This document shows positions 6,068 to 9,876 of a DNA stretch of 64,000 nucleotides, one piece after another. The position numbers and the translations under genes were made by a program. The stretch's first letter is position 1. Each line of letters starts with the position of its first letter. The stretch covers positions 1,924,001-1,988,000 of the forward strand of contig CM097885.1 in assembly GCA_044892525.1 (NCBI GenBank), written 5' to 3'. Below the pieces are notes generated by a model. That model did not search any database. It worked only from the letters and a program-made list of their open reading frames with translations, and was not told the origin of the DNA. The DNA is from Schmidtea polychroa. Lineage: Eukaryota.

Positions 6068-6166
6068 ATAATAATAATAATAATAATAATAATAATAATA
6101 ATAATAATAATAATAATAATAATAATAATAATAATAATAATAATAATAATAATAATAATAATAATT
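6068..6166. repeat. (AAT)n microsatellite
   Basis: Directly visible. Confidence 0.97.
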
Positions 6167-6231
6167 AATCAAAAAAACGTGGCAATGATTTAATAATACA
6201 GAAACGCCAACTCAAAAAAATTCAACATAAA

Positions 6232-6272
6232 CGCGATATATTTCAATTGTACAACAATCTTCGTCAGGCCGC
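6232..6272 (-). ncRNA. Minimal type I hammerhead ribozyme-like motif (stem I damaged)
   Basis: Minus strand reads GCGGC-CUGACGA-A-GAUUGU-UGU-ACAAUU-GAAA-UAUA-UC-GCG: core CUGANGA, 6-bp stem II, GAAA, palindromic stem III, AUC triplet. Only 2 bp of stem I pair. Confidence 0.6.
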
Positions 6273-6782
6273 AATCTGGATAATCAATAATAAGACATAA
6301 AATATGCAATATCTAAACAAATTAACTAATAATAATCATCTCCAAACTGTATCAAAAATTTAAAAAAAAATATTTCAAAAAACCAAACCATATTTTACAT
6401 AGCCCCACATACATATTATTTTAAAATTAAATTTTAATTTAATAACATTTAACATTCAACATAAAATTAACAAATTTAAAAAATTACATAGTTTACAAAA
6501 CACAAACATAATTATACCACAAACACGACTCCCAACCTTCATCCTTCAATTACTTAAACACATTCAATTATAATTTAATTATAATTTTGATTAGTTTTGT
6601 AGATTGATTTTGTGTTTGGTAGAAATTTTGTAGAAATTATTGATTTGGTGGTTTTGTTTTACTGGTGAATTTTTGTTCTGGATTGATGGAATTTTGAATT
6701 GTCGGAAAGTTCTGGAATTGTTCTGGAATTCTTTGGAATTATAATAATCTGTTATTCAAAACCGGACGTCGGCAATAATTAA

Positions 6783-7502
6783 ATGAATCCAGAGTATGAC
6801 TGTTTATTCAAGTTTCTATTAATTGGAGATTCTGGTGTGGGAAAATCTTGTTTATTACTCAGACCTGCAGATGATTCTTATGCTGAAAGTTGCATAAGCA
6901 CAATTGGAGTTGACTTTAACATCAGAACTATTGAATTAGATGGTGGAGCTATGAAATTGCAAATATGGGACACAGCAGGTCAAGAAAGATTTAGAACTAT
7001 AACCTCGTCTTATTACAGAGGAGCTCATGGAATTATTGTTGTGTTTGATGTTACCGATCAAGATTCGTTTAAAAATGTTAAAAATTGGCTTAATGAAATC
7101 GATAGATATACACAAAGAAAAGTTCCAGATAAAATGATTGAGAAGAGTTCAGCCACAAGATTGTTTAATATTACTGAAAGTACTGGAGGTGTTATGACTG
7201 GTATGATCCCTGATTGTCGATCTCAAGTATGTTGTGTACAAGTGGAAGCAGCTCGATTTGAATCTAAAATTGGATATGCGATGCCTTGTGACATAATATG
7301 TCGTTCTATTGCGGATATTAATAAGCTCTATACCCAATCGGCTGAGATGCGACCATTAGGTCTTGATTTCATTCAATTTCGGTCAATGGTGGCATTATCT
7401 TATGATATTGAAATGGACAAACTGTTATTATTCAAAACTGATCCCCGTGGCACTGTGGATGCCAATAAAATTATTAATCTCTTTGTTGGATTTATTCAAT
7501 AA
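6783..7502 (+). CDS. Chimeric ORF: Rab1 residues 1-109 fused in frame to the central part of proteasome subunit alpha type-6 (retro-chimera; function doubtful)
   Basis: 6783-7109 [47 protein letters not shown] is Rab1. 7110-7451 [45 protein letters not shown] is PSMA6/alpha1. No introns in the Rab part; the stop codon is the first TAA of the (AAT)n run. Confidence 0.85.
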
Positions 7503-7563
7503 TAATAATAATAATAATAATAATAATAATAATAATAATAATAATAATAATAATAATAATAAT
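7498..7563. repeat. (AAT)n microsatellite closing chimera cassette 1
   Basis: Directly visible. Confidence 0.97.
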
Positions 7564-8329
7564 GCGATTTGTGTTTATTTAAATTTAATATTGAATTTAG
7601 TGGAAATAAATAAATAATATTTCTAGCGTGAAAATTGATGAAATGAGCATGGACATATCCATTATAGAATTATTGATAACCGCTGCTATGGACAGCACTT
7701 ACCTCTGGCTGTCTGGTGGGGATTCTGGGAGAAATCGAAATGTTCCCCCTTGTCTAAGCTAGACCAATTCTATTAATAATCATTTCCACCGTAAGACCAA
7801 CTGCACAATAATTGCCAGTGAAAATTCTCTTATTATCAATGATTTGATTATAATTTGATAATATTTTCCCTGACCCAGTGGGATATGCTTCATGGGATAA
7901 TAGGGATAAATCCTTTATTAGCGCCTTTCTATGTTATATTGCACATATCCTATCCATATCAGTTCCCTATAAAGGACTGTTTACCACCCCATTACAATAG
8001 TTACCCAACATTTGAAGGTTTGCTTCATTCTCCAGTTCTCATTTATAATTAATACTCAATAATATTTCCCTCCTTTTCAATAATATTATAAACAAATAGG
8101 TAAATATTTGAGTACTGAATGCTACATTGATGGCCTAACCTTCAATGGTCTCACCTTTTGTGTCAAATCTTTCAAACGGTCTTGACTTGGCTTTACCAGG
8201 TCTTCCTACTATGGCACTAATGAAGGCCTATAAAGGTCAAAATGAAAGCTCTAACAATTCTAGAGCTGCCAGAATCTGTCACCGTAATGGTGCTGCTACC
8301 GGGGTCATATGAACTTGCATTTAATGAAA

Positions 8330-8725
8330 GCACAACAAAAGAACTAAAACAAAGGAGTTCTGAATAGATAATATTCAGCTGAATGTTGATGTATATTTCT
8401 GTTTATCTTTATCGCATAGATTTTCATTTGGACAATTATTTATCTTGTCAAAATATTTTAATAAATTTATTTATAGTTTATTTTTAACCAATCAGAGCCA
8501 GACTCAAATTTAACAAATTAAAAAAGCAAATGAAATTTTGAAAATTAAATCGATTTATTCAGATTTAAATTTTATTTTTGAAAAATAGTTTAATTTGTTT
8601 TAATTGGTAAGCCTTTCTGTATTTTAGAGTGACAAAGGCATATTTAGGTGGAAATGTTTCATTTTATGAATAAATACTGCTCATTGCTTAATTATTTACT
8701 GATATTATATTTTATTATTATTATT
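8330..8725 (+). mobile_element. Probable Penelope-like 3' end/pLTR remnant with a degenerate hammerhead at ~8626-8660
   Basis: GTGACAAAGGC..GGAAATGTTTC followed by tttcatt..taaatac..gcttaattat, similar to the tail after the hammerhead at 52030-52110. Ends in an ATT run. Confidence 0.35.
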
Positions 8726-8857
8726 GTTTCGACCAGTTAGAGGGGATTGCCTCTGACTGGCAGTTATTTGGAGTTTGTCTATCGCGTCTGTGTGCGTGGT
8801 CTGGTTAGACCGAATATTGTTGGTGTGCGCACACAGACGCGAGCAATGGAAGCTCGG
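8726..8857. other. Structured GC-rich head of chimera cassette 2: hairpins and a deleted antisense hammerhead
   Basis: Stem 8733-8743/8750-8760 (11 bp, one G-U), flanked by GTTTCGA and CAG. Perfect 15-bp inverted repeat 8782-8796/8828-8842. Small hairpins ggtct-ggtt-agacc and cgagc-aatggaa-gctcg. Confidence 0.7.
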
Positions 8858-9056
8858 TTGGTTTTAAGAGGTAATTGTTAATTGTAAATTTTTATTGATT
8901 GATTTTGGTTTTAAGAGAGGTTTTTAATAGAAATTCTGGATTGTTAATTAGAATTGATTTGTTTAGTTGGATAAAATTCGGTAAATTTTCGAAATTGGAA
9001 TTTTTTTGGAAGAGATTGAATTGTGTTTAAATTGGGATTTTAATTGCCTTGTCAAA

Positions 9057-9611
9057 ATGGCTTCAGGTGTTAAATGTGATCCTTCAGTTGATGTTACCAA
9101 TCAAGATTCGTTCAACAATGTTAAAAATTGGCTTAATGAAATCGATAGATATGAAAAGGGAAAAATTCCCGGTAAATTAATCGTATCGATTGTCACGGAA
9201 CTTTCACAGTTGTTGCCATCATTTTTCATGATTATGCATGGGATCGAGTCTTCTAAATTCACAGATAAGTTCGTCAATAAAAGCAACGATATTGTATTAT
9301 GTATTCGTGAGGAACTAATATTGAATCAGGCTATGTCGGATCTTTCAAATCGATTTGTTTGCAACACGGAAATCAGAAATTATTTAATTGAAGAATTATC
9401 TAACAGAATTTCTCAGTTGTCCGAATTAAAACATCAGGGTGCTTTGGCGTTTATTTCATGGATACCAGAAACAATGAAAATCAATCGTCGTATGATTATG
9501 GCTGCTTTAAAATCTGACGTTGGAATGGACGTGATCCCTGATTGTCGAGCGCAAGTTTATCGTGCACAAATGGAAGCAGCTCGATTAACATCTGAAATTG
9601 GACGTGACTGA
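9057..9611 (+). CDS. Six-segment mosaic ORF (184 aa from ATG 9057): cofilin N-term / Rab1 / PSMA6 / unknown / cofilin / PSMA6
   Basis: MASGVKCDPS (ADF/cofilin start, 9057-9086); [21 protein letters not shown] (Rab1, 9090-9152); KIPGKLI (PSMA6 KVPDKL, ~9153-9182); unknown 9183-9440; LAFISWIPETMKINRRMIMAALKS (cofilin FxxWxP..KMxYAxSK motif, 9441-9521); IPDCRAQVYRAQMEAAR (PSMA6, ~9531-9602). The DNA is visibly similar to 7046-7140 and 7203-7275. Confidence 0.8.
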   Translation: MASGVKCDPSVDVTNQDSFNNVKNWLNEIDRYEKGKIPGKLIVSIVTELSQLLPSFFMIMHGIESSKFTDKFVNKSNDIVLCIREELILNQAMSDLSNRFVCNTEIRNYLIEELSNRISQLSELKHQGALAFISWIPETMKINRRMIMAALKSDVGMDVIPDCRAQVYRAQMEAARLTSEIGRD

Positions 9612-9683
9612 AAATTGGACAAGACATTATCCACTGTCCTCTCAATCAAATAAATTTCTCATGCGTTCTTTTGAGCTGAAACA

Positions 9684-9876
9684 ATTATCATTATTATTAT
9701 TATTATTATTATTATTATTATTATTATTATTATTATTATTATTATTATTATTATTATTATTATTATTTATATTATTATTATTATTATTATTATTATTATT
9801 ATTATTATTATTATTATTATTATTATTATTATTATTATTATTATTATTATTATTATTATTATTATTATTAATATTA
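9684..9876. repeat. (ATT)n microsatellite closing chimera cassette 2
   Basis: Directly visible. Confidence 0.97.

Follow-up and report, generated by a model that had tools for sequence, protein, structure and literature searches.

Two neighbouring cassettes in the genome of Schmidtea polychroa, each with an open reading frame (ORF) pieced together from host housekeeping genes, raise the question of what kind of mobile element assembled and spread them. They lie in a stretch of 64,000 nucleotides (nt) of contig CM097885.1 (the window, G000:C1:1924001–1988000), within a 781-Mb assembly that has four chromosome-size contigs. The window is AT-rich and dense in AAT-type microsatellites; perfect runs of at least 18 nt occupy 4.2% of it. 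An earlier note on this DNA had proposed non-autonomous Penelope-like elements (PLEs), headed by an antisense hammerhead ribozyme, in which captured mRNA fragments had replaced the ORF for reverse transcriptase (RT) and endonuclease. Our analysis points with good confidence to another vehicle: both cassettes are probably long terminal repeats (LTRs) of a high-copy retrotransposon family of BEL/Pao type that carries an in-frame mosaic ORF of host mRNA pieces. The family was described from 72 fetched loci and from the best 40 scored candidates of each query. Domains were called by Pfam, and microsatellites and tandem arrays by Tandem Repeats Finder (TRF).

The two cassettes and the ends of their family

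Cassette 2 is a complete solo LTR of 959 bp on the plus strand (8725–9683, 5′ TGTTTC...GAAACA 3′), delimited by its ends and by copies that match it end to end. It is flanked by ATTAT on both sides and lies inside an ATT run, with an (ATT)~65 microsatellite on its right (9684–9877, TRF). A terminal palindromic hairpin (8733–8760) was recognized from the ends of other copies and from folding, and a second, long hairpin (8782–8842) from folding and from comparison with a relative; the fold of 8725–8860 scores z = −6.5. The second hairpin recurs at 94–95% identity in a distant RT-encoding relative, in which Gag identity falls to 37%. A T/G-rich leader (8843–9056), as the earlier note had described and conserved in the family's copies, leads to the mosaic ORF2 (9057–9611, plus strand, 184 amino acids, aa). 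Its pieces follow in the order cofilin start, Rab1 fragment, unidentified piece, cofilin fragment and proteasome fragment. Pfam recognizes a Ras fragment (aa 12–41) and a Cofilin_ADF fragment (aa 129–155), and the C-terminal piece (9538–9602) is assigned to the proteasome through a DNA match to the Pfam Proteasome region of a relative. In cassette 2 stop codons break off the frame 72 nt short of the LTR end, a point that it reaches in relatives. Cassette 2 as a query gave 2295 first-look candidates, and among the best 40 scored, end-to-end matches were found at 88, 87 and 80% identity.

Cassette 1 is a composite, in which a PLE fragment on the minus strand (6166–6567) abuts an LTR on the plus strand (~6568–7498). 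Comparison of copies shows this solo LTR to be 5′-truncated, lacking the terminal and second hairpins and ending in ..TTCA at 7498. Its captured Rab1 piece (6747–7109, plus strand) comprises 5′ untranslated region (UTR), start codon (6783) and codons 1–109 without introns, matching host Rab1 exons and Pfam Ras. A proteasome alpha-subunit piece follows in frame (7110–7469, plus strand). ORF1 (6783–7502, plus strand, 239 aa; Ras at aa 10–116, Proteasome at aa 111–229) is open to the last LTR base in the phase usual for the family, and its stop codon is supplied by the flanking AAT run. An AATAAA (7464–7469, plus strand) that encodes Asn-Lys in the ORF lies 29 nt before the LTR end; it is a candidate poly(A) signal and is equally placed in other LTR tail types. 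TRF reports an (AAT)33 target tract on the left of the cassette (6067–6165) and an (AAT)22 tract on the right (7498–7563). Thus the plus-strand ORFs of host-gene pieces noted earlier are present in both cassettes, with Ras, Proteasome and Cofilin_ADF recognized by Pfam.

The query with cassette 1 gave 2003 first-look candidates. Among the best 40 scored, same-strand matches were otherwise 87–94% identical and covered only 6574–7497; similarity to the family began at query position 409 (6574), no match started earlier, and none included 6166–6567. In many cassette-1-type copies the LTR head sits 150–240 nt further upstream, and both cassettes are therefore subtypes of one LTR family, cassette 1 being 5′-truncated. 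Copies of the two, at 79–97% identity among the best 40 scored of each, occur on all four large contigs, in answer to the copy count that the earlier note had called for. The confirmed features are on that account products of neither chance nor misassembly.

The window holds two solo LTRs only, and internal element sequence is absent from it; the features of whole elements come from other loci. Throughout the family the LTR is ordered as TG, terminal hairpin, second hairpin, T/G-rich leader and an ORF that reaches the last LTR base. Dozens of copies show sharp 5′ and 3′ ends. They start T|GTTTCGACCAG... with a perfect 11-bp palindromic hairpin and end, by subtype, in ...GAAACA, ...AATCA or ...CATTCA / ...TTCA, so that the termini are TG..CA, with a short inverted repeat in the form TGTTTC...GAAACA. 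With up to 2 mismatches allowed, the 36-nt LTR head has 583 copies in the genome, and its reversed control has 0. An HDV-like (hepatitis delta virus-like) or other 5′ ribozyme at this head was considered and dropped, as Rfam gave no match and the head, situated at an integrase-type terminus, is a plain palindrome.

Same-orientation pairs of heads, 2.2–4.6 kb apart, form direct repeats, and four such loci were fetched. In one of them (L061) the repeats are 99.8% identical, and in the RT-bearing relative the LTR parts are 100% identical over 254 nt. A polypurine tract ending ...GGGGGAAA directly precedes the second head in 4/4 paired loci, and a purine tract is present in the RT-bearing relative too. 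Right after the terminal CA of the LTR, a 16-nt TGG-starting motif, TGGTAGCAGAGCGTGG, is found in seven independent elements (L002, L012, L060–L063 and L071) at the position of a putative primer-binding site (PBS). Among seven copies with unique flanks compared by script, a perfect 5-bp target-site duplication was found in five (L011, L021, L023, L026, L047) and not in L006 or L034; by eye, L033 and the whole L061 composite also carry one. This test is uninformative inside microsatellites.

The interior of the short elements encodes two ubiquitin units, a Gag with DUF1759 (34.9 bits in L063), zinc knuckles and an aspartic protease (a weak Asp protease match), and no RT. A search with the Gag/protease protein returned copies about 96% identical and, besides, a 37%-identity group with frames of about 2000–2238 aa. 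One member of this group, the RT-bearing relative (L071+L072, G000:C1:155215200–155223400), has an LTR of 1024 bp that starts TGTTTAATTC and shares the second hairpin and the PBS. One uninterrupted frame of 2238 aa contains a proteasome fragment, one ubiquitin, DUF1759 (48 bits), RVT_1 (41 bits), Peptidase_A17 ('Pao retrotransposon peptidase', 144 bits) and DUF5641 (84 bits). The frame with RVT_1, Peptidase_A17 and DUF5641 places the lineage in BEL/Pao. It crosses the polypurine tract and stops about 190 nt into the 3′ LTR.

The L061 locus (G000:C1:74022966–74029605) reads LTR, internal region, LTR, partial internal region and the final 73 nt of an LTR. With one 5-bp duplication for the whole, it is a single insertion of a tandem or recombinant element that has lost the sequence between Gag and the tail of the LTR. 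Split direct repeats of the DIRS/Ngaro type were ruled out for this tandem, the sequence before the second head being no repeat of the tail.

The mosaic reading frame ahead of Gag

In the ORF survey (44 LTR copies, a few duplicating one another), an ORF that begins behind the leader is present in every copy; it measures at least 85 aa in all and at least 180 aa in 32 of the 44. Several distinct mosaics occur, and the identified pieces are all sense-oriented, in their native frame and part of one continuous ORF. Rab1 and proteasome pieces are combined in three different lengths; other types start with a Cys/His-rich piece (LIM-like by eye, no Pfam match) or with an unidentified piece. One LTR copy contains 147 residues of a CCT chaperonin (Cpn60_TCP1), one a fragment of a dual-specificity phosphatase (DSPc), and one about 250 residues of unknown origin. 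The mosaic of the RT-bearing relative opens with four tandem 26-aa repeats and includes a proteasome fragment. By sequence match, the sources identified are thus Rab1, proteasome alpha, cofilin, CCT chaperonin and dual-specificity phosphatase.

The frame is tied to the end of the LTR. The phase could be counted in 18 of the 44 copies (23 have no placed 3′ end, and the placements in L052, L058 and L063 were excluded as spurious). In 15 of these 18, the phase that puts codon position 2 at the last base of the LTR stays open over 114–236 codons, and the other two phases over at most 36. Similarly, the LTR-PBS junction is read through in the same phase in five of seven independent elements (L002, L060, L061, L063, L071), with 206 codons or more on the upstream side and 178 or more downstream (290 + 1059 in L063); the other phases are open for at most 37 codons upstream and 14 downstream. 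The read-through passes a peptide encoded by the PBS, HGSRAWFRL(A/T)SRNKV, then a variable, indel-rich linker, and enters ubiquitin and Gag. In full elements the ORF continues through one or two ubiquitin units directly into Gag, which is followed by protease in the short elements and by RT, Pao peptidase and the integrase C-terminus in the longer relative. The ubiquitin adjoining Gag ends in Gly-Gly in both lineages, and the same design, from LTR ORF through PBS to ubiquitin-Gag, is found in these two lineages, whose Gag proteins are 37% identical.

The tests of junctions and splicing cover two pieces, Rab1 and CCT. The host Rab1 gene (L070) has short introns, and 6747–7109 matches five of its exons piecewise at 88–96% nt identity, from the 5′ UTR including the start codon; the piece is therefore a copy of spliced mRNA. 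Two public runs contain contigs (734 and 1674 nt) from which the 443-nt CCT piece of L061 differs at 5 positions, and these contigs continue unlike the element on both sides, as host mRNA would. Over the left joint of the CCT piece, 7/8 nt are common to the Rab1 and CCT parents, and over its right joint 7/7 nt are common to the CCT and cofilin-derived sequences. Such microsimilarity points to template switching, as described for LTR-mediated retroposition (PMC5131818). What stands from the earlier note is that a mobile family of captured and recombined cellular mRNA fragments exists: a retroelement family carries and reshuffles cellular mRNA pieces as an open reading frame.

A cycle may be proposed for this family. 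The element RNA would start upstream of the ORF, so that most of the LTR would be repeat region (R); the poly(A) signal would be the conserved AAUAAA that lies about 30 nt short of the LTR end. While the long terminal region is reverse-transcribed, RT would switch at short microsimilarities onto co-packaged abundant host mRNAs and back, by copy-choice. Gag would be made only from products with an open frame, and only in-frame mosaics would then propagate. Host deubiquitinases are predicted to cut after the ubiquitin Gly-Gly, freeing Gag from the N-terminal patchwork; since such a cut would remove any patchwork before Gag, the N-terminal content would be free to vary. For RT and integrase, the short Gag-protease elements would depend on RT-encoding relatives with the same hairpin and PBS. 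Integrase would insert the products with 5-bp duplications and with a strong preference for AAT/ATT runs in either orientation. Among 36 independent LTR 5′ ends, counted without four heads after a purine tract and three duplicate loci, 11 abut AAT runs, 5 ATT, 1 (TA)n and 19 other sequence. AAT or ATT runs thus adjoin 16 of 36 heads, in both orientations, compared with about 4% of the window in such runs. The AAT flanks that the earlier note had expected of further copies are found in part of them.

Several points weigh against the proposed reading of the family, some of them against its translated mosaic in particular. L006, L043 and cassette 2 of the window have stops before the LTR end (3 of 18), and L012 and L062 stop in the linker (two of seven elements). 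Pairwise comparison of ten Rab1-proteasome ORFs gave a median ratio of nonsynonymous to synonymous substitution (dN/dS) of 0.79 over 44 pairs, which suggests that the amino-acid sequence is barely constrained and that openness alone seems to matter. At 3–5% divergence some of this openness could reflect youth, and an internal Met just before or at the start of the ubiquitin unit could be the real start codon. We infer the placing of the ORF in R, and its translation, from frame conservation alone, and an R region of at least 700 nt would be unusually long. Four runs of contigs, whose kind is uncertain, gave thin and fragmentary cover of the element and no usable starts, ends or LTR-to-Gag bridges; the same four runs yielded host CCT and ubiquitin contigs. 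No RT-encoding element with exactly the LTR head of the window, TGTTTCGACC, was found among the loci seen, the relative starting differently as described above. Finally, the primer tRNA is a candidate only: a pattern search placed the complement of the PBS motif beside a T-arm-like motif in a 454-bp array that is not among 63 scored tRNA candidates, and no tRNA was found in the window.

The arrays involved are large. Tandem units of 454 bp fill G000:C1:79326093–79386288, and units of 424 bp fill G000:C4:76658343–76669437. The 424-bp unit scored as tRNA at 74 bits, and the 454-bp unit carries a motif like a tRNA 3′ end that is complementary to the PBS. Genes for tRNA seem to stand here in long head-to-tail arrays.

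The best-surviving alternative accepts the LTRs and takes the mosaic ORF to be incidental. The pieces would then lie in the unique 3′ region (U3), untranslated with Gag, and the frames would be open through the youth of the copies and through native frames free of stops. The dN/dS near 1, the low divergence among copies, the Met codons just before or in ubiquitin, and a translation step that the preferred reading takes from sequence are all on its side. Nevertheless, in 15 of 18 copies unrelated mosaics keep one and the same phase to the LTR end. The AT-rich and indel-ridden linker behind the PBS is open for 60–110 codons in five of seven elements, including the relative with the 37%-identical Gag, and the identified pieces form one continuous, sense-oriented ORF in native frame. 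An incidental ORF is on these grounds improbable, yet it deserves to be kept in mind.

The Penelope-like fragment and the weaker alternatives

The PLE origin put forward in the earlier note is now very hard to credit, even though PLEs do occur in this genome in AAT runs (6166–6567 and 51387–52119). In both likeness and setting there was reason for the proposal: PMC8557442 reports a bias of PLE insertion towards microsatellites and the existence of non-autonomous derivatives (for context bioRxiv 10.64898/2026.07.22.740005), and a PLE lies beside cassette 1 itself. An LTR copy in L017 also adjoins a canonical-looking hammerhead core (CTGATGAG...CGAAAC), a few bases past the LTR end, presumably from a neighbouring PLE or retrozyme. 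Nevertheless, all PLE hallmarks are absent from the family of the cassettes. The copies have TG..CA ends, 5-bp duplications, a putative PBS, a polypurine tract and Pao-type Gag, protease and RT, and their 5′ end is fixed, not variably truncated. Elements that bear the head have ubiquitin-Gag-protease as their interior, not PLE-type RT or GIY-YIG. Other copies are bounded by LTR ends, an outcome the earlier note had named beforehand as counting against a Penelope-like vehicle. Nor do captures replace a PLE ORF for RT and endonuclease; the pieces occupy the LTR, where they precede the element's Gag and share its frame.

The hammerheads were likewise not recovered. No Rfam hammerhead model reached its gathering score in the window, and none appeared at E ≤ 10 in 5900–10100, 6166–6567 or 8700–8900, stretches that include both heads; Rfam gave no other credible family in these searches either. 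The hammerhead-like motif described at 8726–8763 is the terminal palindromic hairpin of the LTR and contains no CUGANGA box. The one at 6232–6272 has CUGACGA and GAAA boxes round a hairpin, with two helices only and a fold no better than shuffles (z = +1.66). It lies outside the LTR family, in the 3′ UTR of the minus-strand PLE. Minimal PLE hammerheads of a dimer type exist; 6232–6272 may be one of these, and the motif would then belong to the neighbouring PLE.

The fragment at 6166–6567 belongs to another family on the other strand, and it never occurs in other copies of the family of cassette 1. As a query it gave 540 first-look candidates, and the long matches among the best 40 scored were 94–98% identical, nearly all spanning query positions 1–402; this family is young and different from the LTR family. 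In two other copies the minus strand extends into the last part of a GIY-YIG-type endonuclease frame, recognized by eye, and 6166–6567 is therefore the last 402 nt, all 3′ UTR, of a 5′-truncated minus-strand PLE whose 3′ end abuts the AAT run. The PLE end claimed at 51387–52119 is also real. It is a 5′-truncated PLE on the plus strand, between two AAT-type runs, with the end of a GIY-YIG-type endonuclease ORF seen by eye and a 3′ UTR ending ...ATTGTTTTA; the same 3′ end lies just upstream of the LTR copy in L057. The two PLEs belong to different families. No sequence similarity was found between the LTRs and either fragment, and the supposed kinship of the cassette heads with PLE ends is not borne out.

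The single layout ascribed to both cassettes holds only in part, for cassette 1 is made up of two elements on opposite strands. Similarly, bounding AAT/ATT runs are confirmed on both sides of cassette 1 and on the right of cassette 2 (9684–9877), whereas on the left of cassette 2 only about 4–5 ATT units are present, unreported by TRF. With respect to the AAT strand, moreover, the two LTRs are oppositely oriented.

The long open frames of many copies would also fit a host multigene family whose genuine chimeric proteins arose by exon shuffling and whose association with repeats is incidental. This explanation is nonetheless most improbable: the Ras fold breaks off at profile position 107 of 162, only part of the proteasome fold is present, dN/dS is about 0.8, and the copies are enclosed by LTR ends with target duplications. 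Among 5.8 billion database proteins, the length ranges searched contained no such protein. For ORF1, Rab1 proteins dominate the result, and at most 73% of ORF1 is covered by any of the 120 matches listed. The peptide of LTR tail, PBS and linker had no protein-database match at 426–1358 aa, and a cassette-2-type ORF had one cofilin match only among database proteins of 119–382 aa. An assembly chimera is the least credible of all, since all four large contigs bear copies, hundreds to thousands in total and with differing flanks, and the same joints recur in many of them.

Other features of the window may be listed briefly. Directly right of the ATT run of cassette 2, a 369-aa ORF on the minus strand (9990–11099) has many hydrophobic stretches and a receptor-like, multi-pass membrane look. 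TRF also reports satellite-like arrays of a 32-mer (×26.6, 15505–16355), a 43-mer (×6.2, 12061–12326) and a 16-mer (×23.7, 41569–41947), and an (ATC)×145 run at 386–819.

Known systems and the meaning of the family

Host mRNA capture by LTR elements is already established. Tan et al. 2016 (PMC5131818) describe capture by template switching, multi-gene chimeras and secondary retroposition, and their examples include a BEL element. The present family resembles this LTR-mediated retroposition in its partial, intron-less, sense mRNA pieces, its chimeras of several parents and the microsimilarity at switch points. There the retrocopy takes the place of part of the internal ORFs, at single or few loci (PMC5131818). 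Here, by contrast, the pieces are inside the LTR and in frame with Gag(-Pol), in short elements and in an RT-encoding relative, and they have spread to hundreds or thousands of copies in many recombinant versions. For capture inside an LTR in frame before ubiquitin-Gag(-Pol), and for ubiquitin-Gag in a retrotransposon, no report was found in our literature search, outside which lay subscription journals and Repbase.

Other comparisons are instructive. Bs1 of maize is reportedly an LTR retrotransposon that has transduced several host gene pieces and expresses a chimeric ORF, and other plant LTR elements are said to carry gene fragments. Both Bs1 and the present family are thus LTR elements with several host gene pieces. 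In elements of the Bs1 type, however, the pieces are said to be internal and the family low-copy, without a ubiquitin spacer or fusion to a working Gag-Pol, whereas here they are LTR-embedded and Gag-fused. Coding sequence that starts or lies in an LTR is known from the Gag start of yeast Ty1 and from sag of mouse mammary tumour virus. These are precedents for a translated LTR, but they serve fixed element or viral functions and are no interchangeable host patchwork. Ubiquitin is a cleavable fusion partner in ubiquitin-ribosomal protein fusions, in polyubiquitin and in insertions in cytopathic pestiviruses. Similarly, ubiquitin Gly-Gly stands here directly before Gag, where its cleavage is predicted. 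Copies that bear a 5′ LTR and whose frame reaches ubiquitin carry an 'RGG/CGG' remnant of the preceding unit, as in polyubiquitin mRNA. Pack-MULEs and Helitrons are also mobile elements that amplify mosaics of host gene fragments; they capture at the DNA level, keep introns and leave the pieces mostly unfused to element proteins.

A further, speculative idea, which we regard as unlikely, is that the carried pieces of essential host mRNAs may act as weapon or shield in a small-RNA conflict. If so, Piwi-interacting RNAs (piRNAs) against the element would also hit the messages of Rab1, proteasome, cofilin, CCT and ubiquitin, and the host would be penalised for silencing. The element RNAs would carry host stretches probably at both ends, and the reshuffling of the mosaic would be an arms-race signature. 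Conversely, thousands of LTR copies could feed the gene-directed piRNAs of planarian stem cells, which are reported in PMC6824462; further small-RNA context is offered by bioRxiv 10.64898/2026.01.28.702291. In any case the family is relevant to the question of how small-RNA defence and thousands of near-identical pieces of essential genes can exist side by side.

For annotation, such LTRs will be mis-called as Rab1, proteasome, cofilin or CCT genes or pseudogenes genome-wide. What had been supposed to be a new class of Penelope-like capture elements becomes a well-defined LTR system with unusual features, among them a BEL/Pao integrase with a marked preference for AAT microsatellites. The system would give a tractable case of copy-choice recombination in a very long terminal repeat region. 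The family looks like a natural, ongoing exon-shuffling machine, in which the filter is apparently to keep the frame open ahead of Gag, and in which a captured ubiquitin unit may serve as a universal release site.

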